In this document: positions 6,490-62,460 of the stretch, piece by piece
Layout of the letters: the number at the start of each line of letters is the position of its first letter
Numbering within the stretch: position 1 is the stretch's first letter
Assembly: GCA_963733915.1 (NCBI GenBank)
Contig: CAVTEP010000003.1
Span: 3,757-67,756 of the forward strand
Source of the DNA: Candidatus Sulfomarinibacteraceae bacterium
GTDB lineage: Bacteria; Acidobacteriota; Thermoanaerobaculia; Thermoanaerobaculales; Sulfomarinibacteraceae
Direction of reading: 5' to 3'
DNA: 64,000 nt
The notes under the pieces: generated by a model
Told to the model about the DNA's origin: nothing
The model's input: the letters and a program-made list of their open reading frames with translations, nothing else
The model's database searches: none
Position numbers and translations under genes: made by a program

Positions 6490-8418
6490 GTGGCCATGAT
6501 CGCGATTACCGACCTCAGCAAGGCCTACGGCGCCCAGACCCTCTTTGACGAGGTCAACCTCCAGCTCAACCCAGGCTGTCGCTATGGGCTGGTCGGCGCC
6601 AACGGCTCCGGCAAGAGCACCATCTTGAGGATCATCGCCGGCACCGAGGAGCCGAGCGGCGGCGCCGTCTCACTCCCAAAGCGCCTCCGCGTCGGCGTCC
6701 TCGAGCAGGATCATTTCCGCCTCGAGGACACTCCGATCCTCGATGTGACGATGATGGGCCACCAAGAGTTGTGGCGAGCGCTGGCGGAAAAGGACCGCAT
6801 CCTCGAGGCCTCGGCGGAGCACTTTGACGGCGAGCGCTACGCCGAGGTCGAGGACCTCGTTGTCAGTCTCGACGGTTACAGCTTCGAGGCTCGCGCCGGT
6901 GAGATCCTCGAGGGACTCGGCATCCCGAGCGAACACCACCGACGGCCGCTGGCGACCCTCTCCGGCGGTTTCAAGCTGCGCGTTCTCCTCGCCCAGGTGC
7001 TGGCCGCGGACCCCGGCTGCCTGCTCCTCGACGAACCCACCAACCACCTCGACATTCTGTCCATCAGGTGGCTCGAGAAGTTTCTCGCAACCTATCGCGG
7101 TTGCGCTCTCGTCGTCTCCCACGACCACCGATTCCTCGACAACGTCTGCACCCACATCCTCGATATCGACTACGAGACGGTCACGCCCTACACCGGCAAC
7201 TACACGGACTTCACCGCCGCCAAGGTGGCGAATCGTGAACGCAAGGAGGGCGAGATCGCGCGCCAGGAAAAGAAAATCGCCGAACATCGGGCGTTTGCCG
7301 ACCGCTTTCGCGCCAAGGCGACCAAAGCGCGCCAGGCGCAGAGCAAGCTCAAGCAGATCGACCGCATCGTCATCGAGAACCTTCCCAGATCGTCACGCCG
7401 CTACCCGGTATTCCGATTCCGCCAGCGCCGCCCGAGCGGCAAGGAAGCGCTGCGCTTGAAGGGCATCAGCAAGTCATTCGGCGACAACAAGGTGCTCTCC
7501 GACGTCGGGCTTCGGGTCCGGCGCGGCGACCGTCTCGCCATCATCGGACCCAACGGGATCGGCAAGTCGACCCTGCTCAAAATCGCGGTCGGAGACCTGC
7601 CGCCCGACGCCGGCGAGGTTCGTTGGGGCCATGAGGTCCGCGCCGGTTACTTCGCCCAGGACCACCGGCAGGCGTTCAAGGGAAGCGACGCCACCGTCGA
7701 GAGCTGGCTCGGGGCGGCCTGCGGAGGCGAAAGCATTGGCGCGGTCCGCAATCGACTCGCTCAGGTGCTGTTTTCAGGCGACGAAGTCGAGAAGCGGCTC
7801 TCCAGCCTGTCCGGCGGCGAAGCGGCGCGGCTGATATTCGCAAAGCTCGCGGTCGACCAGCCAAACGTCCTGGTCCTTGACGAGCCGACCAACCATCTCG
7901 ATCTCGAGGCCATCGAGGCCCTGGTTGCCGCCATCGACGCGTTTGACGGAACGCTGATATTCGTCTCCCATGACCGGTGGTTCGTTTCCAAGCTCGCGAC
8001 TCGCGTGCTCGAAATCACCAAAGACGGGATCAACGACTACCCGGGAACATACGACGACTACCTGGCGAGCTGCGGCGACGACCACCTCGACGCCGACGCC
8101 GTGCTGCTGCGGGTCAAACGGGAGCGCAAGGCCAAGGCGTCCACCCGGCCAACCACTGAGAGTGCCCCCGACCGCGCCGAAATCAGGCGTCGCAAGGAGC
8201 TTTCGCTGCGGCGGGATGTGGTGACCGCCGCCGTCGAAAGCGCCGAGACGAGGATCGAGGAGATCGACCAGGCGTTCTGCGCGCCCGGTTTCTTCGACGA
8301 GACCGCGGAGTCAAAGATCCGCTCGATGCAGCAGGAGCGGGACAAGCTCGCCATCGACCTCGAAAAACTCATCGCCGAGTGGGAGCAGATCGAGGCAACC
8401 CTTGAATTCGAGTGTTGA
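6490..8418 (+). CDS. ABC-F family ATPase (two ABC domains plus C-terminal coiled coil; YheS/Uup-like)
   Basis: ORF 6490..8418; GANGSGKST, LSGGFKLR, LLLDEPTNHLD, GPNGIGKST, LSGGEAAR, LVLDEPTNHLD; start GTG 6490 or ATG 6496. Confidence 0.9.
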   Translation: MAMIAITDLSKAYGAQTLFDEVNLQLNPGCRYGLVGANGSGKSTILRIIAGTEEPSGGAVSLPKRLRVGVLEQDHFRLEDTPILDVTMMGHQELWRALAEKDRILEASAEHFDGERYAEVEDLVVSLDGYSFEARAGEILEGLGIPSEHHRRPLATLSGGFKLRVLLAQVLAADPGCLLLDEPTNHLDILSIRWLEKFLATYRGCALVVSHDHRFLDNVCTHILDIDYETVTPYTGNYTDFTAAKVANRERKEGEIARQEKKIAEHRAFADRFRAKATKARQAQSKLKQIDRIVIENLPRSSRRYPVFRFRQRRPSGKEALRLKGISKSFGDNKVLSDVGLRVRRGDRLAIIGPNGIGKSTLLKIAVGDLPPDAGEVRWGHEVRAGYFAQDHRQAFKGSDATVESWLGAACGGESIGAVRNRLAQVLFSGDEVEKRLSSLSGGEAARLIFAKLAVDQPNVLVLDEPTNHLDLEAIEALVAAIDAFDGTLIFVSHDRWFVSKLATRVLEITKDGINDYPGTYDDYLASCGDDHLDADAVLLRVKRERKAKASTRPTTESAPDRAEIRRRKELSLRRDVVTAAVESAETRIEEIDQAFCAPGFFDETAESKIRSMQQERDKLAIDLEKLIAEWEQIEATLEFEC

Positions 8419-8546
8419 GTTTTGAGTGTTGAGTTTTGAGTGTTGAGTTCTGAGTTGTCCCCACCCACCCTGATCGTCCCGAGAACGGCGGAAACCCCCG
8501 AAAAACCTCCGCAACTCAAAACTGAAAACTCAAAACTCAAAACTGA
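8410..8546. repeat. tandem-unit hairpin element E2: (GAGTKTT)x7, C-rich core, (AACTSAA)x5
   Basis: 8410-8458 gagtgttgagttttgagtgttgagttttgagtgttgagttctgagttgt overlaps the ABC-F stop codon (8416-8418); core starts ccccacccaccc; 8513-8546 aactcaaaactgaaaactcaaaactcaaaactga is the reverse complement family. Confidence 0.85.
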
Positions 8547-13487: not shown

Positions 13488-13864
13488 GCCGATGGATCGT
13501 CCATTCGCACGCAGGCTTCAACGCGCGCCACGCCCTGGCCCGCTACCGCGGCCAGCCCGAGACCGCTCACGACCACCGGTGGCGGGTGGCCGTGCGGGTC
13601 GGCGCCGACGCCCTGACCGACGAAGGCTACGCCCTCGACTTCCACCAGGTCCACGAGATTCTGACCGGCGCGGTGGCCGTCCTCGACGGCGGCGACCTCA
13701 GCCACCATCCCGAGATCGGCCGGCCCTCGCCGACCGCCGAACGCGTGGCCGAGGTCCTCGCTGAACAGCTCGCGCCGCGTTTCGCAGATCTTGGCGGTCG
13801 GCTGCTGTCGGTCAGTGTGTGGGAGGGCGAGGACAATCGGGTCGATTTGATTCTCGATCGATGA
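13484..13864 (+). CDS. 6-pyruvoyl-tetrahydropterin synthase / QueD-like protein without any cysteine
   Basis: in frame of ORF 13220..13864; GTG at 13484 overlaps the upstream TGA (GTGA); FNARHAL, AHDHRWRV (HxH zinc motif), DFHQV, PTAERVA; no Cys in 126 aa. Confidence 0.65.
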   Translation: MSRWIVHSHAGFNARHALARYRGQPETAHDHRWRVAVRVGADALTDEGYALDFHQVHEILTGAVAVLDGGDLSHHPEIGRPSPTAERVAEVLAEQLAPRFADLGGRLLSVSVWEGEDNRVDLILDR

Positions 13865-13865
13865 A

Positions 13866-14370
13866 GGCTATGGGGCTATGTGGCTGTGGGGCTATGGGGC
13901 TATGGAATTGACAAGCGGCTTGGCGCCTAGGGTGAGAACGAATCGCGTTTCTGTATGAACGCGGCAAGGGCGGCGGCAGTGCGCCCGTGCAATTCACCGA
14001 GAACCGAAGAAGTCTCGTCGCTCAGGTATCCCAATCTGGACGAAAGCGCAATCAAATACCCCTACTCTCGGAGAGAGCCAAATGCGATATCCAAAAACCG
14101 ATTGAATTCAGTTTCCGTGCGGCGGCCGCATCCCTCCACGAAATTGGGCGCCACAGAAACGGCACTTCGTCGTGCCTGGCTCACCAAGCCGTAAAGTCCC
14201 TCTTTCGGGAAATTGTTCGTCGATTGATAGACCTCAATCACAAGATCATCCGCCAACTGGAAGATCTCGAGTTTCCGGTGGTCCCTCACGATTCTCCCGC
14301 TTTACCTGTTGCGCACACGGATCGGGTCCTTCATAGCCCCATAGCCCCATAGCCTCATAGCCACTTGGCC
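13866..14370. repeat. tandem-unit element E3: (GGCTATGG)x5 and (CCATAGCC)x5 inverted arms enclosing a four-helix-bundle gene
   Basis: 13866-13905 ggctatggggctatgtggctgtggggctatggggctatgg; 14331-14370 tcatagccccatagccccatagcctcatagccacttggcc; fills the gap between the stop codons of two convergent genes (13864 and 14372). Confidence 0.9.
13927..14289 (-). pseudogene. four-helix-bundle protein (23S rRNA intervening-sequence protein family, PF05635/TIGR02436-like) interrupted by one in-frame TAG
   Basis: ORF 14062..14289 MRDHRKLEIFQLADDLVIEVY...SAVSVAPNFVEGCGRRTETEFNRFLDIAFGSLRE ends at TAG 14064-14062; same frame continues GYLIALSSRLGYLSDETSSVLGELHGRTAAALAAFIQKRDSFSP to TAG 13929-13927, total about 120 codons as normal for the family. 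Confidence 0.8.
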
Positions 14371-14371
14371 G

Positions 14372-16387
14372 TCAACCCTCGAGCGACTTGGCGACCAACT
14401 CGATGACGTCATAGGTCGCGACGCCCTCGCGGCCGAGCTCGTTCTGGGCGTCCGACAGCATGGAAAAACAGTAGGGGCAGGCCACCGCCACATTCGAAGT
14501 GCCGCTGTCTTCGAGCTGCGCAAATCGGGTCTGGTTGATGCGTTCGCCGATCTTCTCTTCGAGCCACATCCTGCCGCCCCCCGCGCCGCAGCACATCGAG
14601 GTCTCGCGGTGGAGCTCCGCCTCGCGGACCTTGATCCCGGGAATTGCCTTGAGCAGGAACCGCGGGGCGTCGTACTCGCCGTTGGTGCGGCCGAGATAGC
14701 ACGGGTCGTGATAGGCGAGGTCGACGTTGACGCTGCCCATGAGCTTGACCCTGCCCTTGCGTACCAGCTGGGCCACCAGTTGGGTCCCGTGCACCACCTC
14801 GTAGTCACCGCCGAAATCAGGGTACTCGTGGGCGAGGGTGTTGAAGGCGTGCGGACAGTTGGTGACGATCTTCTTGACGCCGTACCGGTTCATGGTTTCG
14901 ACGTTTTGTTGCGCCAGCATCTGGAAGAGATACTCGTTGCCGAGCCGGCGCGCCGCATCGCCGGTCGAGACTTCCTCCGACCCGAGGATGGCGATCTTGA
15001 TGCCGGCCTCCGTGAGGATCTTGACCAACGCCCGTGAAACTTTCTTGCCGTGGTCGTCATAGCTGCCGGGCGAGCCGACAAAGAACAGGTACTCGAAGTC
15101 GCCGCCGGCCTCGGCGGCCAGCGGCACCCCGAGATCGGACGCCCAGTTGCCGCGCTCCTCGGCCGGCATCTGCCAGGGGTTGCCGTTGACCTCGTAACCG
15201 CGGAAGGCGCTCTGCGCCTCCTCGGGAAACTCGGCCTTTTCGAGCACCAGGTTGCGCCGCATCTCGACCAATTTGTCGACGTAGGAGATGTCGAGGGGAC
15301 AGGCGCGCTCACACCAACGACAGGTCGTGCAGGCCCAGATCACATCGGGATCGACGACCAGCGGTACCAATTGGTGCTGCGACGCACGTCCGCCGTCACC
15401 CGGCGAACCGAGGATCTCGGACTGCTCTCGGTAGAGCTGGTCGCGGACGGTTTTCAAATAGAGCACCGGCTGCAGCGGTTTGTGAGTGATGGTGGTCGGG
15501 CAAAACTCGCGGCAGCGACCGCACTCGGTGCAGGTGTACATGTCGAGCATCTGTTTCCACGTGAAGTCGGTGATGGTAGCGATGCCGAAGGTGCTGTCCT
15601 CGTCGATGTTCTCGAGGTCCATGCCCGGCAGCTTGCCGGGGGCGTCGAGCTTGGCGAAGAAGACGTTGAAGATCGAGGTGTAGACGTGGAAGTGCTTGGA
15701 GTACGGCAGCTCGTTGGCGAAGGCGAAGAGGGTGATCAGGTGGATCCACCAGCTGGCGCTGTAGACGATCTGCAGGGTCGCCGTACCAAAGCCGGCGAAT
15801 GCGCGCGCCGCCAGGCTCGAAATCGGCAGGTAGGCGCCGTTGATATCACCGGCGGCGATCCGGGCGCCCTCGGCGGCGAGGTCGGTCACCATCAGGATCG
15901 CGATCAACCCGATCACCAGCCAGGCGCCCCAGCTTTGGATCACGCGCTCCTTTTTCTGGATGCCGCGTCGCCAGACGGCGAAACAAAGACCCACCAGCAC
16001 CAGCAACTCGAAAATGTCCTTGGAGAACAGATAGGCGTGACCCAAGGGCGAGTCGAGGAGCGGCAGCTCCCAACCCGCCAAGAGGCCCTCGAGGACCATC
16101 GTCACCGTGCGGACGCTGACCACCAGGAAGCCGTAGAAGATCAACAGGTGATACAACCCGGCAACCGGGTCATCAAACATCTTCTTCTGCCCGAAGGCGT
16201 AGATCATCATGTGCTTGAAACGCTCGCCGAGACGGTCGAGTCGGTTGTCGGGGCGGCCCGCCCTGAGGACCTGGAAACGCCGGCTCAGCGACAGAACGAC
16301 CGCGCCGACACCGATTATCGTGAGAACCCAGAACCAAACGACCCCGGAGATCCCCAGAAACGTCCCAGCCGTGGCGTGATGCAGCAT
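14372..16387 (-). CDS. membrane-anchored iron-sulfur oxidoreductase (DsrM/NarI-like TM domain fused to DsrK/HdrD-like 4Fe-4S and CCG domains)
   Basis: ORF 14372..16432 trimmed to ATG 16387 behind GGAGGAG; CTECGRCREFCP, CTTCRWCERACP, HDPCYLGR, MCCGAGGG. Confidence 0.8.
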   Translation of the reverse strand: MLHHATAGTFLGISGVVWFWVLTIIGVGAVVLSLSRRFQVLRAGRPDNRLDRLGERFKHMMIYAFGQKKMFDDPVAGLYHLLIFYGFLVVSVRTVTMVLEGLLAGWELPLLDSPLGHAYLFSKDIFELLVLVGLCFAVWRRGIQKKERVIQSWGAWLVIGLIAILMVTDLAAEGARIAAGDINGAYLPISSLAARAFAGFGTATLQIVYSASWWIHLITLFAFANELPYSKHFHVYTSIFNVFFAKLDAPGKLPGMDLENIDEDSTFGIATITDFTWKQMLDMYTCTECGRCREFCPTTITHKPLQPVLYLKTVRDQLYREQSEILGSPGDGGRASQHQLVPLVVDPDVIWACTTCRWCERACPLDISYVDKLVEMRRNLVLEKAEFPEEAQSAFRGYEVNGNPWQMPAEERGNWASDLGVPLAAEAGGDFEYLFFVGSPGSYDDHGKKVSRALVKILTEAGIKIAILGSEEVSTGDAARRLGNEYLFQMLAQQNVETMNRYGVKKIVTNCPHAFNTLAHEYPDFGGDYEVVHGTQLVAQLVRKGRVKLMGSVNVDLAYHDPCYLGRTNGEYDAPRFLLKAIPGIKVREAELHRETSMCCGAGGGRMWLEEKIGERINQTRFAQLEDSGTSNVAVACPYCFSMLSDAQNELGREGVATYDVIELVAKSLEG

Positions 16388-18892: not shown

Positions 18893-19023
18893 GAAACGTT
18901 AGAACGTTAAAACGTTCAACGTTCCCGCCCACCCCCGAGAGTTGGGTTGCTCATTCTTGTCTCGATATCACGGAACCTTCAAGAGTGGAACGTTCTGACC
19001 TTCAACGTTCTAAGGTTCTAACG
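18893..19023. repeat. tandem-unit element E4: (NAACGTTN) arms with CCCGCCCACCCCC core
   Basis: 18893-18923 gaaacgttagaacgttaaaacgttcaacgtt; C-box 18924-18936; right arm 18972-19023 ggaaccttcaagagtggaacgttctgaccttcaacgttctaaggttctaacg. Confidence 0.8.
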
Positions 19024-26533: not shown

Positions 26534-26669
26534 CAACCGTTTGAACGTTGCAACATTAGAACGTTAGAACGTTAGAACGTTCCTAATCTCCCCCAGGGTG
26601 TACATCGAGAATTGACTGGGGTGGATGGACGAAACGTTTTAACGTTGAACGTTCCAACGTGTAACGTCG
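26534..26669. repeat. tandem-unit hairpin element E8: AACGTT-type arms around ctcccccag...ctggggtgg core
   Basis: 26534-26583 caaccgtttgaacgttgcaacattagaacgttagaacgttagaacgttcc; right arm 26631-26669 gaaacgttttaacgttgaacgttccaacgtgtaacgtcg; ends 5 nt before the stop of the convergent gene. Confidence 0.85.
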
Positions 26670-35077: not shown

Positions 35078-35530
35078 ATGACCACCGCTTCACACCCGAC
35101 CACCACGTCTTCCGACGCGCTCGCAGGCGGAATTCGCAGCGCTCTCAGCCGCCTTGAGGCCCTCGACAACGAGACGGCAGGCTACCTCAAGACCCTTGCC
35201 TTCATCCTGAACCGCGTGGCCGGAGCCGACAGCCACACTTGCGCGGAGGAGGTCGAGAGAATGGAGCAAATCCTAGTCGACCACGCCTCCTTGTCGCTTC
35301 CCGAGGCGGTGCTGGCCGTCGAGATCGCCCGCCATTGCGGCCGCGTGGCCGACTGCGGATGCGCTTACGAGGCGAGCCGCAGCCTTCGCTCGCGTCTGAA
35401 TGACAACGAAAAGCACCGTGTCCGCAGTTTCCTCGAGTCCATCGCAGAGGCCGATGGCAGGGTGCGGCCGTCGGAGGTAGCTGAGATTCGGCAAATCGCG
35501 GCCGAGATCGGGTTTCCCTCTCATCGTTGA
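35078..35530 (+). CDS. TerB-like (tellurite-resistance TerB / DjlA-N type) domain protein
   Basis: frame of ORF 34826..35530, ATG 35078 behind AGGAGG; two helical halves ending in AEADGRVRPSEVAEIRQIAAEIG. Confidence 0.5.
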   Translation: MTTASHPTTTSSDALAGGIRSALSRLEALDNETAGYLKTLAFILNRVAGADSHTCAEEVERMEQILVDHASLSLPEAVLAVEIARHCGRVADCGCAYEASRSLRSRLNDNEKHRVRSFLESIAEADGRVRPSEVAEIRQIAAEIGFPSHR

Positions 35531-35617
35531 GATATGAGTTCTTGCCCCCCGCCCCGCAGGATTTCAGGTTCGTGCTCGGGTGGGCGGGGGAGGAACTCAA
35601 AACCAAGAACTCAAACC
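35529..35617. repeat. tandem-unit hairpin element E10 (GAGTTCTTG / CAAGAACTC arms, C-box, G-box)
   Basis: 35529-35544 gagatatgagttcttg (overlaps TGA 35528-35530); ccccccgccccg 35545-35556; gggtgggcggggg 35578-35590; aggaactcaaaaccaagaactcaaacc 35591-35617. Confidence 0.8.
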
Positions 35618-35687
35618 TACGCGATGCCAGTGACCAGGATCAGCTATCATTCTCCGTGCGCCGCGTCTCGTGGTGCGCGGAGGATCG

Positions 35688-52074: not shown

Positions 52075-52548
52075 TCAAAACGGCCACCACCATGGTCCCG
52101 CAGATTTCGGGTCAACCATGTCCGGATCTTTGGATGAAGCCTCCAGTGCGCGCTGCCGCTCGCCGGCATCCCGTTCGATCAGCAGGCAGCCGGAGCGCTC
52201 GACGTCGGCGAGCATCTCGGGGGCCGAGTTGAGGATCACGACGTCCACGTACCGCCCTTCGGGCAAGGCCTGGGCGACCGCCTCGGAGACCAGATCGAGG
52301 GCCGCTCGTAGCGATTTCATCGCCGCCGGCATCAACCACACGAAGAGCACCAGACCCGGCACGTCCCGTCCGCCCTCGATTTCGACCTCTGCGAGATGGG
52401 CAAAGGAGACGTCGGGGCAGACTTGCAGACGCCCGCGAAGCCTCTCGAGGGTTTCCGAGCTAAAGGGACGGCTTGGGCGGGATATTCGAATACCATTTTC
52501 GGCGGGTGCCATCCCGGCATCATATCCTCCGACCAGGCGGGGGTCCAC
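52075..52548 (-). CDS. hypothetical protein (weak resemblance to SseB C-terminal-type domains)
   Basis: ORF 52075..52548; codon bias looks coding; no motif I can name with confidence. Confidence 0.45.
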   Translation of the reverse strand: MDPRLVGGYDAGMAPAENGIRISRPSRPFSSETLERLRGRLQVCPDVSFAHLAEVEIEGGRDVPGLVLFVWLMPAAMKSLRAALDLVSEAVAQALPEGRYVDVVILNSAPEMLADVERSGCLLIERDAGERQRALEASSKDPDMVDPKSAGPWWWPF

Positions 52549-52584
52549 GCAATAGGCGCTGACAATACATCAGAGCAGGCTGTT

Positions 52585-52758
52585 CAAGCCCGAGCCCGTT
52601 ACCGTTGCCGAAGATTGGGGTTCTTCTCAGGGATCGACCACTACGAAATAGAGCGCAATCTGGTACACGTCGAGCTTCTCGAAGTCGAAGAACATGAAAA
52701 TTTCCTTCTCAGGAGGCGTATGGTATCGGTAACGGCAACGGTAACGGGCTCGGGCTTG
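52585..52758. repeat. element E14: perfect 26-nt inverted repeat built of hexamer units, enclosing a four-helix-bundle gene stub
   Basis: caagcccgagcccgttaccgttgccg 52585-52610 and cggcaacggtaacgggctcgggcttg 52733-52758 (exact reverse complements), extra cggtaa unit 52727-52732. Confidence 0.9.
52627..52695 (-). pseudogene. 22-codon N-terminal stub of a four-helix-bundle (PF05635-like) gene
   Basis: GAAGGAAA then ATG at 52695; MFFDFEKLDVYQIALYFVVVDP stop; matches family N-terminal pattern F-x-x-L-x-V-W/Y-Q-x-A; stop lies 16 nt from the left arm. Confidence 0.55.
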
Positions 52759-52888
52759 GGACGGACAAAGAGCGTCAGCTGAGCCTGGCCGCTCTTGCCG
52801 AACGCTCGCCAACGCGCCTATGAGCGCCAACTGCTTCCACGCAGCACTACCGATAGACCTTCGCGCTGATTCCAGATAGGGTTGATTC

Positions 52889-53839
52889 GTGTTCACCCGA
52901 ATCGTGCAATCTGCCTTCTCGATTCTTCTTCTCCTGTCGACTTCCGCGGCGGGCGACGACTTCGAGTCGGCCCTCGAGAGCGCCCGCGAGGCGGCGCGCA
53001 CTCACCGCTACACCGACGTCATCGAGCTCCTGACACCTTTCAATGTTGCCAGCGACCCTGAGATTCAGTACATCACCGCCGCTGAAATCGGCAGGGCCTA
53101 CTTTCACCTCGGGGAGTACCAGCTCGCCCACCGGGCATTCAGGCAAGCCGTCCGGCTCCACCCCGAGCTGGTCGAAACCGCGGTCTACCTCGAGGCAACT
53201 TCGTACCTCATCGGCGACAAGGAACAGTCCTTTGCAATTCTCAACGGACTCCTCCAGGCCGGCGCCCGCGACCTCTACCTTGCTATGACCTTGCCCGGAG
53301 AACGCCGGTTTCTGGGCGAGCCCGAGGTCCAATCGATTCTCGATCGTCACGCCGTACCACTCGAGTTGGAGCTGGAAAGCGGCGCCATTCTCGGCGTAGC
53401 CCTCGGCGACGACCGAGTAACTACTGTGGACACGCTGGCAGCCGGGTCCGCGGACCCCAATGCGCCGGTTCTCACTGCGAGCGCCGGGCCGGCGATGATT
53501 TGGGCGTTCGTGTTCGATACCGACCTGCGGCTCGTGGAGATCATCATCCAGGCCGAGAACCTCGTTCGTTACACACCGTACCGGTTGCAGTTGGGTCCAA
53601 GAATCGACTGGCGAAGCACCCCCGCCTCGGTCATCGCAAGCTGGGGCCAGCCAGCCAGGACCTCCGTAGGCGATGATGGCGGAATCCTGATGACCTGGAC
53701 CTACGGGGACTACGACCTGAGCCTCGATTTTGCCAAGCCCAGAGAGCCCAGACCGCCAGGAATCTCCAACGGCGCGGCAATGCTGCGTTCAGTCCATCTC
53801 GAGAGTCGCGCTGCCCACGCAGCTGATAGTATGAACTGA
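52889..53839 (+). CDS. secreted TPR-repeat protein
   Basis: ORF 52889..53839 (GTG start); signal peptide; TPR-like helices AAEIGRAYFHLGEYQLAHRAFRQAVRLHP. Confidence 0.6.
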   Translation: MFTRIVQSAFSILLLLSTSAAGDDFESALESAREAARTHRYTDVIELLTPFNVASDPEIQYITAAEIGRAYFHLGEYQLAHRAFRQAVRLHPELVETAVYLEATSYLIGDKEQSFAILNGLLQAGARDLYLAMTLPGERRFLGEPEVQSILDRHAVPLELELESGAILGVALGDDRVTTVDTLAAGSADPNAPVLTASAGPAMIWAFVFDTDLRLVEIIIQAENLVRYTPYRLQLGPRIDWRSTPASVIASWGQPARTSVGDDGGILMTWTYGDYDLSLDFAKPREPRPPGISNGAAMLRSVHLESRAAHAADSMN

Positions 53840-54414: not shown

Positions 54415-54665
54415 GCAATTCTCACCGCGTCGCTGGGTGATACCTGAACACGCGGGCGTTGGAAAACGGCCAGCTCATAACCAGACCCGCAACTCTACTC
54501 AGGGGCCGAAGCGAAGAGTGCGAGACGTCGTGCGATGTGGCGATTTCGCGGTGTGAGCGAGGGAGGCTTACTCGGAGCGTACGTCACACCGAGCGAACAC
54601 AAGAAAGCGCCGCAGCGTGCGGCGTACCGCGCTCTGCAGCCGGCCCCTGAGGAAAGATGCGGGTC

Positions 54666-54693
54666 AAGAAAAGCCCGGCCGGTTGGCCGGGCT
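54666..54693 (-). terminator. intrinsic terminator candidate (minus strand)
   Basis: agcccggcc ggtt ggccgggct with aagaaaa on the plus strand, i.e. stem-loop followed by UUUUCUU on the minus strand. Confidence 0.6.
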
Positions 54694-59532: not shown

Positions 59533-59598
59533 GACGGGAGTCTACAGCATCGTTAGAACGTTAAAACGTTGAACGTTAGAACGTTTGGCTTATCCGGG

Positions 59599-59695
59599 AT
59601 GGCGAGAAATCGAGGTTCGGAAGGCCCGGTTGGCCCGCATTATTCATGAGGTCTCGTCGCCCTCGCGACGAAACCCGGTGAGATATGCGGTTTAG
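59599..59695 (+). pseudogene. N-terminal stub of a four-helix-bundle (PF05635-like) gene
   Basis: ATG 59599 followed by one extra G, then frame 59600-59695 reads WREIEVRKARLARIIHEVSSPSRRNPVRYAV stop; resembles family N-terminus (x-D/E-L/I-E-V-W-x-K-A-x-x-L-A-x-x-I-Y); stops where the next repeat block begins. Confidence 0.45.
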
Positions 59696-60037
59696 CCGCT
59701 GCCGCTGTCCCTGCCCGGTCCCTACCCGCCGTTGCAACGGATCGGACCACCGGTATCGGAGACGGGTGGTCCCCTTTTCCCCTTTTCTCCTTTTCTCCTT
59801 TCCCCCCCTTCCTCATCAGGGAGGGCGGGTGAAACGTTCGGTTCATCCGGAATTTGATGGGATCGAGTTTTGGAAGTTCCGATCAGCTAACCCAGCGACA
59901 GGAACAGCGACACACCGCAGGGGCAGTGAACAGCGGCCGAGGCAGCGACCGCGGCAGCGACCGGGGCAGTGAGCAGGGGTCGTGACGACGGCATGTTCAA
60001 GCCGGGTCGTTCAGTGCGAGAGGTAGCCGGTGGGCAC

Positions 60038-60093
60038 CCGATGTCAAGGGCAAGCCGGGCCGAGGGCCCGGTGCGATGCACCCTTGACATCGG
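60038..60093. repeat. 13-nt perfect inverted repeat with inner hairpin, upstream of the intact four-helix-bundle gene
   Basis: ccgatgtcaaggg (60038-60050) ... ccgggcc gag ggcccgg (60055-60071) ... cccttgacatcgg (60081-60093); right half contains TTGACA. Confidence 0.75.
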
Positions 60094-60118
60094 CCGCCTC
60101 ACCGGCTCGAGGAAGGGC

Positions 60119-60493
60119 ATGAACGACCCGGCGTTGAACATGTCCGACGCGCGTACGAACCCCAACCTCGTTGCCCACTCGAAGGCCCTTGACGCGGCTG
60201 GCATTGCGATCAAGCTCGTGATGAGGGTTCCAGCCCCATTGAAATCGATCGCCGATCAGGTGATCCGGTCGGCAAGCTCGGTCCCGGCCAACCTGGCGGA
60301 GGGGCACGGCCGGGCCGGAAGAGACCGGCAACACTTCTGGAGGATCGCCTACGGCTCAGCCAAGGAGGTCGACAGCCACCTTCGCCTCCTGGTTCAGGCT
60401 GGTGCCGTTGATGGACGAAGCGCCACGACCGCACTCGATACCTTCGATCAAGTCCGCGCCATGACCTGGCGCTTGCTCAACCCAAACACCTGA
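60119..60493 (+). CDS. intact four-helix-bundle protein (23S rRNA intervening-sequence protein / Avd family, PF05635/TIGR02436-like)
   Basis: frame of ORF 59969..60493, ATG 60119 (or 60140); ...SIADQVIRSASSVPANLAEGHGRAGRDRQHFWRIAYGSAKEVDSHLRLL... matches the family core Q-x-x-R-A/S-x-x-S-x-x-x-N-x-A-E-G ... A-x-G-S-x-x-E. Confidence 0.8.
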   Translation: MNDPALNMSDARTNPNLVAHSKALDAAGIAIKLVMRVPAPLKSIADQVIRSASSVPANLAEGHGRAGRDRQHFWRIAYGSAKEVDSHLRLLVQAGAVDGRSATTALDTFDQVRAMTWRLLNPNT

Positions 60494-60716
60494 TCGGCGT
60501 TCTCCGCGCCGGTCCGGCCGGGAGTTGTCGCGGTCAACTGTCCCTGACGCGGTCCACGGCCGCTGCCGCCGTCCCTGACCGCCGCCCCTGACCGCCCGTC
60601 CAACGGATGCGACCAACTCCGTCGGGGACGGGTGGGTGGAAAATCCGAATTCCGAAATTGAAGAGTTGACACCCCACGCAATTCCGGAAGACCCAAACGT
60701 TCCAACGTACAAACGT

Positions 60717-61442
60717 TTAACGACTCTCTTGCCGGGCGACCAACATTGCGCCGCCGACCACGGCGGCAGTCTCGGATCGGAGTACGTGATCGCCGAGCCG
60801 AAGCCGCGGCCAACCGTAACGGACGAAGAGCTGTTGCTCCACTGCGGTGAACCCGCCTTCAGGACCAACCGCCAACAGTCGGCCGGCGTCCGCGGGAATG
60901 TCTGCAACTGCTCCACCGTCGTGATCGGCGACAACCCCGCCTCCTAGCGGCGACTCCCGTTCGATCAGCTCCTCCAGAGACGCGATGTCCGCGACCTCCA
61001 TTGCCCATGCACGGTGGCACTGCTTGAGCGCCTGCATCGCGATGCGGCGCCAGTGGTCGACTCGAGTCTCGCGCCCGCGGCGAAGGGCCTGGGCGAGCTC
61101 GGCATCGATCGGCAGCAGGCGCCGCACCCCGATCTCGACCAGTTTTTGAACGGCCCAGTCCATCGGCTGGTTGCCGACCATGGCGAGAGCGACCGCTACG
61201 CCGTCGGCGAGCGGCTTTGGCTCCCGCCGCACCGATAAGATCTCGACCTCGACCTTGCCCCCGCCAACGGCGACCAGCTTTGAATCGGCGACCGCGCCGA
61301 GACCATCAATGAGAACAACCTCGTCACCTCGGCGACGCCGCAGTGGACCTGTGAGATGGTGGGCTTCAGCGGGATCGAGCGTCAAAGTGCGTCCGACTTC
61401 GAGGCTCTGAGCCGGTGCAAGTAGCCACGGTGGAGACTTCAT
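60717..61442 (-). CDS. rsmE: 16S rRNA (uracil1498-N3)-methyltransferase
   Basis: ORF 60717..61478 trimmed to MKSPPWLL; PUA-like N domain, GPEGGFT, LRLGDHVLRSETA; its last codons and stop lie inside the AACGTT arm. Confidence 0.8.
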   Translation of the reverse strand: MKSPPWLLAPAQSLEVGRTLTLDPAEAHHLTGPLRRRRGDEVVLIDGLGAVADSKLVAVGGGKVEVEILSVRREPKPLADGVAVALAMVGNQPMDWAVQKLVEIGVRRLLPIDAELAQALRRGRETRVDHWRRIAMQALKQCHRAWAMEVADIASLEELIERESPLGGGVVADHDGGAVADIPADAGRLLAVGPEGGFTAVEQQLFVRYGWPRLRLGDHVLRSETAAVVGGAMLVARQESR

Positions 61443-62370: not shown

Positions 62371-62460
62371 GTTAAGAGTCAAGAGTTAAGGGTCAAGACG
62401 TGCTGCTATTCAAGAAGAGGACATGGGATGGCTTCACTCTTGACTCTTGACTCTTCACAG
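62371..62460. repeat. tandem-unit hairpin element E16: (YAAGAGT)x4 / (GACTCTT)x3-4
   Basis: gttaagagtcaagagttaagggtcaagacg 62371-62400; 31-nt centre without C/G box; cttcactcttgactcttgactcttcacag 62432-62460. Confidence 0.85.

Follow-up and report, generated by a model that had tools for sequence, protein, structure and literature searches.

A probable internally deleted member of a dispersed PF05635 hairpin-element family between two divergent genes

A perfect inverted repeat enclosing a mere 22-codon stub of a PF05635 gene raises the question whether mobile DNA has entered the gap between two divergently oriented genes. The locus is part of the window, i.e., the whole 64-kb stretch of DNA analyzed here. 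In the reading favoured for it (probability about 0.8), the stub represents an internally deleted copy of a small element family dispersed in Thermoanaerobaculia, which inserted with target duplication and spread in trans. The preliminary description had delimited the element at 52585-52758. These coordinates hold for the inner hairpin but not for the whole inserted unit, which is larger than the inverted repeat (284 nt, 52552-52835), possesses degenerate terminal inverted repeats and is bracketed by a perfect 8-bp direct repeat (TCCACGCA; 52544-52551 and 52836-52843). The unit, its parts and its neighbours are as follows:

52075-52512, minus strand: flanking gene, 145 aa as called in the orthologous contig L001, without Pfam family; its ATG is 38-39 nt from the insertion
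52544-52551: target-site duplication, copy 1 (TCCACGCA); repeated identically as copy 2, single in the empty sites of L001 and L002
52552-52835, minus strand: whole element, internally deleted member of 284 nt; missing in L001 and L002, with homology to the copies L003 and L008 over the entire length
52552-52584, minus strand: outer 3' region with the right terminal repeat at its end (...TTGTCAGCGCCTAT); aligns to AACAGCCTGCTCTCAGG.TATGTYAGCGCCNAT(G) of all family members
52585-52610, minus strand: distal hairpin arm, CGGCAACGGTAACGGGCTCGGGCTTG on the minus strand, made of hexamer units; full-length copies have a TAA stop within this arm
52611-52643, minus strand: 3' remnant of the gene and trailer (TAGT/GGTCGATCCCTGAGAAGAACCCCAATCTT); aligns to the last codons of the full-length ORF (..GGTCGGTCTCTGAGAAGCAGCC..)
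52627-52695, minus strand: stub ORF of 22 codons plus stop; codons 1-17 correspond to the conserved PF05635 5' end, the tail is read in a frame other than that of the original 3' end
52696-52732, minus strand: leader with RBS GAGAAGGAAA (52701-52710); conserved as CTGAGAGGGAGA..TC-ATG in all family members
52733-52758, minus strand: proximal hairpin arm, CAAGCCCGAGCCCGTTACCGTTGCCG on the minus strand; pairs with the distal arm, core common to the family copies
52759-52835, minus strand: outer 5' region with the degenerate left terminal repeat (AG-CAGTTGGCGCTCATAGGCGCGTTGGCGAGCG...GTCCGTCC); aligns to CATCGGCGCGAACTCAGGCGTGTTGGCGAGCGATCGGCA..CTCTTTGTCCGTCC of the family
52836-52843: target-site duplication, copy 2 (TCCACGCA), identical to copy 1
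52889-53839, plus strand: flanking gene, TPR-repeat protein, used to find orthologous loci; its GTG is 53 nt from the insertion

As had been described, the two arms (52585-52610 and 52733-52758) are exact complements, with 26 of 26 positions paired and 122 nt between them. The chance expectation for such arm pairs is about 1.5e-7 (64 % G+C, at most 1.5 kb apart, 64 kb; own arithmetic). Both arms are composed of the hexamer units GGTAAC, GGCAAC and GGGCTC. Read on the minus strand, the proximal arm is followed by (i) a 37-nt leader (52732-52696) containing GAGAAGGAAA at 52710-52701, (ii) the ATG (52695-52693) of the 22-codon ORF, which translates as MFFDFEKLDVYQIALYFVVVDP, (iii) its TGA stop (52629-52627), and (iv) a 16-nt trailer leading into the second arm. 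Both the RBS with ATG inside the right arm and the stop 16 nt from the left arm had been recognized correctly; only the distance of the ATG required correction, from 30 to 37 nt inside the arm. The fold of the 321-nt region surpassed those of 100 out of 100 shuffled sequences on both strands (z -5.7 and -5.4), and the 26/26 stem enclosing the rest corresponds to the long complementary termini of 23S intervening sequences. According to a rough gene map based on GC3, the element is indeed the only one among the hairpins of the window to occupy a divergent gap; the remaining ones are located between convergent or tandem genes.

Orthologous loci were found via the TPR-repeat protein, the homologues of which carry the source labels Thermoanaerobaculales or Acidobacteria. 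Two orthologous contigs were compared: L001 (TPR protein 90 % identical; DNA 91 % identical over 14.5 kb) and the more distant L002 (TPR protein 78 % identical; DNA about 80 %). The divergent gap measures 81-84 bp in these two contigs versus 340 bp in the window, and at the gap blastn opposes 298 nt of the window to 3 nt of L001, in agreement with L002. The insertion point is located mid-gap, between the flanking divergent genes, and the target sequence is single-copy in both empty sites (TCCACGC in L001). A presence/absence comparison, as proposed in the preliminary description, thus far comprises these two orthologous loci, both without the insertion. Since the segment is missing from the nearer as well as from the more distant relative, an insertion in the lineage of the window is the parsimonious reading. 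Judged from these alignments, the insertion is shown to postdate the split from the 91 % identical lineage.

The empty sites also bear on the possibility that hairpin and short ORF constitute a host regulatory device for the divergent genes (leader peptide, attenuator or insulator). A location between two promoters and a good RBS with ATG would suit such a device, but the segment is missing from two close relatives with the same flanking genes, the end of the peptide is different in every copy (22 codons, 24 codons, or read-through into the arm), homologous copies reside in unrelated contexts, and the promoter-like site of the minus-strand gene was left intact by the insertion rather than replaced. 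A regulatory function of this kind is considered very unlikely.

The promoter-like site itself (52547-52519, minus strand: TGGACC, 17 nt, TATGAT) is separated by 6 nt from the ATG at 52512, and its position suggests that the mRNA of the 145-aa gene may be leaderless or near-leaderless. The -35 hexamer of this site overlaps the duplicated target sequence, and the site abuts the insertion point. A sigma-54-like motif (TTGGCGAGCGWTCGGCA; GG-N10-GC) is present in the outer-left region of the element (52790-52806, minus strand), 5' of hairpin and gene; an equivalent motif is conserved in the copies L003, L004, L007 and L009.

Relatives of the element were retrieved by using the stub, written twice, as protein query. 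This yielded three short 'proteins', and the contigs encoding them hold homologous truncated elements in unrelated contexts: L003, adjoining an AI-2E transporter gene, L004/L005, and L006, nested in another hairpin. The order of parts is shared by these copies: a 75-nt outer-left region, arm GAGCCCGAGCCCGTTACCGTTGCCGTTACCG, leader, ATGTTCTTCGACTTCGAGAAGCTCGACGTGTA.., TGAGAAGAACCC..TCTT, second arm and a 33-nt outer-right region. Scanning 185,579 species genomes (one genome per species) for the ORF start with a degenerate pattern gave 3 matches, i.e., the full-length elements L009 and L007, and the stub copy L008. L009 belongs to an uncultured Thermoanaerobaculia genome, and L008 is present in the same metagenome-assembled genome (MAG), while L007 represents the locus orthologous to L009 (94 % identical). 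The contig of L007 (DATIVB010000326.1) is labelled as a Chondromyces sp. MAG; being 94 % identical over 3 kb to the Thermoanaerobaculia contig of L009, it has probably been assigned to the wrong bin. When metagenomes were scanned with the arm, 40 contigs were obtained, among them two further full-length copies (L014, L020). The 25-nt core of the proximal arm occurs in 7 of 7 family copies then known, and 40 contigs from JGI metagenomes contain it as well. With only 3 matches in 185,579 species genomes, the census remains small, nearly all of it stemming from metagenome contigs. In the 64-kb window, nhmmer and a terminal-repeat search revealed one copy of the family, with neither a second copy nor a larger element having the same terminal repeat, and viral contigs scanned with the arm and with the ORF start gave no match. 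A protein search with the 72-aa read-through translation of the element matched only P0122, so that a family census through called ORFs is not possible.

Full-length elements comprise about 575-580 nt and carry a 124-codon gene with its own RBS in the loop of a 26-40 bp stem, the arms of which are arrays of the hexamer units GAGCCC, GTTACC and GTTGCC. L009 and L007 possess outer regions, arms and leader as in the stub, together with an intact 124-codon ORF ending with a TAA stop in the distal arm. Arm GAGCCCGAGCCCGTTACCGTTGCCGTTACCG, leader and outer regions are common to all four parents (L009, L007, L014, L020), in line with the proposal to search for full-length elements with the same arms. 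The 124-aa product matches PF05635 (E 5e-23, profile positions 1-105 of 106) and TIGR02436 (E 1.6e-23), exceeding both curated cut-offs (81.7 vs. 33.8 bits and 83 vs. 24 bits, respectively), and its closest solved structure is PDB 2GSC (E 3e-8). The four full-length ORFs differ mainly at synonymous sites (dN/dS 0.10-0.19), indicating that the full-length protein is maintained by selection. The outer regions of the family end in terminal inverted repeats (CATAGGCGCTAAC.. and ..GTTAGCGCCTATG). These are defined by the copies L013 and L015, which share 96 % identity over 385 nt, with the identity ending exactly at CATGGGCGCTAAC.. and ..GTTAGCGCCTATG.

The window copy aligns to these relatives throughout: comparison with L003 and L008 by blastn covers 52552-52820, and nhmmer with the family profile gives E 1.5e-61 and 7.8e-26. 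Alignment of stub and leader to the full-length copies revealed DNA matches on both sides of the mapped deletion. The previous assignment of the stub peptide to the N-terminus of PF05635 proteins is confirmed by 17 of 19 residues being identical to the full-length parent ORF (phmmer E 3e-5) and by the alignment of the DNA. This assignment is founded on the match to the parent rather than on a generic profile score. Indeed, Pfam and NCBIfam gave no match with the 22-aa stub, the peptide being too short for their filters, and our own PF05635 profile, derived from another subfamily, placed it in the correct N-terminal register but with a marginal score (4.4 bits; rank 4 among 1688 segments of the window). 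The missing Pfam or NCBIfam match would be compatible with a chance ORF in an unrelated palindrome of the REP or terminator type; yet homology of the DNA to full-length PF05635 elements extends to either side of the deletion, 17 of 19 residues agree, and no T run follows the stem. With full-length parents and the family alignment at hand, a chance ORF is ruled out.

The preliminary description would have been contradicted by a peptide dissimilar to the N-termini of the family and by the lack of any full-length element sharing the arms. Neither is the case, as a parent with the same arms exists and the similarity of the peptide is evident via this parent. Two of its proposals are not borne out. 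Derivation from an element of the window such as E3 does not apply, as the parent belongs to a separate family and the other gene-carrying elements of the window have different arms. Nor is a link between the ORF-less hairpins of the window and the gene-carrying ones supported: in several of the former, the conserved inner motif is another one, and a PF05635 remnant is lacking. The evidence thus supports the earlier interpretation in substance, with wider boundaries and a different parent.

In the family alignment, the stub junction is located at TTCGTCGT/TGGGAAGGTCGG, with ..GACTTCGTCGT fused to TGGGAAGGTCGG... It follows codon 17, which is joined to ..GGTCG.TC.CTGAGAAG. In the window copy, the junction is at about 52640-52643, and the nhmmer match breaks at 52644/52639. 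In L009, CGTCGT is present at both junction sites, pointing to a slippage-type deletion of about 290 nt of coding region. Across the junction the reading frame is shifted with respect to the 3' remnant, which creates the TGA; what remains of the gene are 17 conserved codons and the last codons out of frame. L003 and L008 have retained the primary junction and have a derived G>A change in common. Beyond the primary deletion, the window copy lacks another 6 nt, and L004 and L006 lack another 19 nt, reading through into the arm. The flanks of the stub copies L003, L004/L005, L006 and L008 are unrelated. Overall, the stub class is present at five unrelated loci, and three other internal-deletion classes occur at several loci, at least 3 each (L013/L015/L026/L041; L036/L043/L048; L010/L016/L030/L031/L032).

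The nested series of deletions and the unrelated flanks argue for one deletion, followed by spread and further erosion, and do not fit five independent events. By this comparison the truncated form is shown to have spread after the deletion, as far as can be read from the alignments. The designation as a 'MITE-like', internally deleted derivative is borne out by the empty orthologous sites, the 8-bp target duplication and the same deletion at four other unrelated loci. Alternatively, a full-length element may have inserted here and decayed in place, the stub never having moved as a stub. The private extra 6-nt deletion and the degenerate left end of the window copy could be taken in this sense, as could the PF05635 copy at 13853-14383, which is decaying in place (in-frame TAG). 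However, the primary junction is common to copies at four other unrelated loci, the stubs share derived substitutions, and the same deletion of about 290 nt occurring five times independently is much less likely than one deletion and subsequent spread. Decay in place is hence regarded as unlikely, and spread of the stub form is preferred. The end of the peptide is not conserved, so the stub peptide presumably has no function. The window copy is a dead remnant; its significance lies in the evidence it provides for PF05635 hairpin elements of the intervening-sequence type being mobile and having given rise to non-autonomous derivatives.

The course of events can be read from these comparisons. 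About 290 nt of the coding region were lost at the CGTCGT microhomology, the stub form then dispersed to five or more unrelated loci, and the window copy was inserted in the middle of the 81-bp divergent gap with an 8-bp target duplication. Spread of truncated copies would require factors in trans, a candidate being the protein of the full-length copies, which is under purifying selection. Breakage and joining of DNA would have to be performed by an enzyme of the host or one encoded by an element. By analogy with rRNA intervening sequences, the perfect stem may form an RNase III substrate in any transcript crossing it. Arm mismatches in the sense strand comprise 16 G.U versus 17 A.C, i.e., there is no G.U excess and thus no sequence evidence for the stem being selected as sense RNA.

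No transposase, integrase or reverse transcriptase is recognizable in the stub or in the full-length element. A scan of 30 large ORFs in the window and the gene annotation of the syntenic L001 likewise disclosed none of these enzymes, but housekeeping genes. Direct repeats flank the window copy (8/8 positions), L009 (11/11), L007 (10/10), L003 (9/10) and L004 (8/9), corresponding to duplications of 8-11 bp in five loci. No target duplication is visible in six copies of the MYFD subfamily, and none was found at the filled site of a cyanobacterial cassette (see below); hence, a single cut-and-paste process with fixed stagger does not fit all copies.

Mobilization by a transposase encoded elsewhere is favoured by the terminal repeats and duplications. 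A different route would dispense with a transposase: homologous exchange via the arms of existing hairpins serving as 'landing pads', or cDNA formation by a reverse transcriptase acting in trans with the help of the Avd-like protein. Such a route would account for the many copies without target duplications, for the varying duplication length (8-11 bp) and for copies nested in other repeat-armed hairpins or arrays (L006, L008, L041). It would also agree with the same hexamer arms recurring in many other hairpins, as layers and solo arrays, with L001 retaining an AACGTT array at the position of the window's 1.1-kb element, and with the resemblance of PF05635 to Avd, the accessory protein of diversity-generating retroelements (PMC10053308). 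On the other hand, the sites of the window copy and L009 are clean duplications of non-repetitive target, the empty sites are devoid of an arm-like array, no reverse transcriptase was found in the window, and terminal inverted repeats as sharp and conserved as these typically characterize transposase substrates. Transposase-free spread is consequently viewed as a possible but rather improbable route, and insertion with target duplication, supported by factors in trans, remains the preferred reading. Copies residing inside other repeat-armed hairpins or repeat arrays (L006, L008 and L041) are anecdotal. Hairpin loops were also considered as insertion targets and rejected: flank-to-flank pairing was no better than in shuffled sequences, except for L048 (z -2.9).

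Among known systems, 23S intervening sequences with an S23p/PF05635 ORF (Leptospira, Coxiella burnetii; PMC4990558) are most similar in their near-perfect stem of 26-40 bp around an RBS and a PF05635 gene of about 120 codons, the ORF being likewise prone to decay. The 23S element of Coxiella (428-444 nt, 28-bp stem) encloses a decaying S23p ORF and is excised by RNase III, its origin from a mobile element being only hypothesised (PMC4990558). Arms of tandem units are also seen in the Azospirillum 23S intervening sequence analyzed here (see below). In contrast to these systems, the family element is located between protein-coding genes rather than in rRNA, and Rfam and tRNA scans detected no rRNA, tRNA or other Rfam family in the window, hence no placement in helix 25 or 45. 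The family element differs further by extra outer regions with terminal inverted repeats, by target duplication and by dispersed deleted derivatives.

With 284 nt, the non-coding and intergenic window copy resembles a MITE also with respect to terminal inverted repeats (the left one degenerate in the window), a target-site duplication confirmed by the empty site, origin by internal deletion, and occurrence of its class at several unrelated loci. However, a related autonomous element encoding a transposase is missing: the full-length relative encodes the PF05635 four-helix-bundle protein only, with no recognizable transposase. Moreover, the duplication is missing in half of the family copies, and it is the perfect internal hairpin made of tandem hexamers that dominates the structure, rather than the terminal repeats.

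The parent protein belongs to the same fold family as the PF05635-like Avd (PDB 4DWL; PMC10053308), with the motif RxxxSxxxNxxE and the homopentamer 2GSC as nearest structure. Unlike avd of diversity-generating retroelements, the gene of the parent is situated inside a hairpin, with neither a reverse transcriptase nor template/variable repeats nearby. No reverse transcriptase domain was detected in the 30 large ORFs scanned or in the annotated genes of L001, and general repeat scans, which were not aimed at such repeats, yielded no template/variable repeat pair.

Intergenic heptamer arrays, often forming convergent inverted pairs, were described for Xanthomonas (GGGAATC; PMC4692102) and as TAACTGA arrays (PMC4679880). 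Tandem units of 6-9 nt arranged as inverted pairs in intergenic DNA are a shared property, but these reports contain no tie to PF05635 genes or mobility, whereas in the present case a gene of this type or a remnant of one is situated between the arrays. The occurrence of PF05635 genes within cas loci had likewise been recognized before (PMC3936711), and the two subjects were not linked in that work or in the studies on heptamer arrays (PMC4692102, PMC4679880). The literature covered, which was incomplete, contained no report of PF05635 elements behaving as dispersed or MITE-like DNA, so that novelty is unproven.

Similar arrangements exist outside the family. In a sample of 12 PF05635 genes on plasmids of cultured bacteria, 10 are located between inverted arrays of tandem units of about 7-8 nt (6-9 nt). 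These include a Gemmatirosa plasmid copy, copies in cas operons and one in a 23S rRNA gene of Azospirillum (see below). The inverted-array scores were unmatched by shuffled sequences in nine cases, and the tenth was equalled by one shuffle in 200. A cyanobacterial cassette (416 nt including arms) has empty counterparts on six other plasmids, where the locus is otherwise 93-94 % identical, and recurs at 80-84 % identity in different contexts, without visible duplication. Plasmid AZO_p2 of Azospirillum lipoferum 4B harbours a true 23S rRNA intervening sequence with PF05635 ORF (L060; 14336-14804 of the record), the arms of which consist of TCAGAGGACGGATGACAGAGGACGGAGGAC and an imperfect complement, with tandem units of about 7 nt. 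The Rfam LSU model matches across the whole locus, for which PLSDB lists no feature. By comparison with the E. coli sequence, its flanks look like the base of helix 45.

In cas operons, PF05635 genes were observed between cas10/cmr2 and cmr3 or between cas6 and cas4 (Picosynechococcus PCC 7003, L050; Anabaena sp. 90, L054; Pseudanabaena, L055). Two of these three genes are bracketed by heptamer or octamer inverted arrays, the ACAGGTG array of Anabaena being perfect (25/25). They look like insertions rather than components of the cas systems.

Arm lengths correspond to about 4-5 units, and the protein is a pentamer according to the nearest structure (homopentamer 2GSC). One may tentatively speculate, with the odds rather against than for it, that PF05635 'hairpin cassettes' form one widespread and undescribed mobile class, consisting of a gene for an Avd-like pentamer in a 25-40 bp stem of inverted arrays of 6-9 nt units. 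The 23S copies would then have landed in helix 45, those in cas operons would be insertions, and many heptamer arrays and ORF-less hairpins would represent footprints or non-autonomous derivatives, with the protein acting in trans on the arms in a manner unlike known transposases.

The origin and mobility of rRNA intervening sequences as well as the role of the S23p/PF05635 ORF have been open since the early 1990s (hypotheses reviewed in PMC4990558). The present locus adds comparative evidence (i) that an intervening-sequence-like element enters new chromosomal sites with target duplication, and (ii) that its protein is under purifying selection, yet protein-less copies still spread. A defined pair of parent and derivative and defined cis sequences render mobility and protein role testable. 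Furthermore, a possible explanation is provided for PF05635 genes in cas operons, as well as a lead on intergenic heptamer arrays. For annotation, it is advisable to mask such stubs as element remnants, together with the spurious long ORFs running through them.

Several further hairpin elements were observed in the window. A second PF05635 element (13853-14383) has 52-nt arms of GGCTATGG octamers, which are 83 % complementary and directly adjoin the stop codons of a convergent gene pair. The gene on its minus strand (PF05635, E 2.9e-22) contains an in-frame TAG at codon 76 and is thus a pseudogene. The third one (59559-60722, 1.1 kb) comprises nested repeats, i.e., AACGTT-type octamers, GGCAGCGACC units of about 10 nt and a GAATTCC-type half arm. 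Its interior is missing from L001 (12477-12491), which retains a 47-nt AACGTT array between TatD and RsmE, which may be an excision scar or a landing pad. An imperfect 25-nt hairpin element at 54433-54668 is shared by the window and the more distant L002, but not by L001, which has a simple 16-bp terminator-like hairpin at this position. This pattern suggests not only gain but also loss or replacement of hairpin elements.

At 8411-8544, 18895-19017, 26537-26665, 35515-35633 and 62371-62458, the window contains hairpins devoid of an ORF, the arms of which are composed of tandem units of 7-8 nt. Their units are GAGTKTT, AACGTTNN (in two of them) and GTYAAGA, and several display a C-rich motif (CCCNCCC..) just inside one arm, resembled by the loop CCCG(G)AGAACGGYGG of the hairpin hosting L006. 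Our own profile detected no PF05635 remnant in the ORF-less hairpins of the window. The metagenome contigs L012, L024, L029, L034, L045 and L049 contain multi-layer hairpins, the arms of which concatenate several tandem-unit modules (GGTGTGGAA, GAGCCC/GTTACC, GAAGAAC, around CCCGCCCGCC / GGCGGGCGGG). Their conserved cores (..GGTTGCCACC..GGGGAGCGC.., or GGCACCCTCGG..GGGAGAATCGGCGCGAT) are unrelated to PF05635, and these hairpins may represent another element family or a non-coding RNA.
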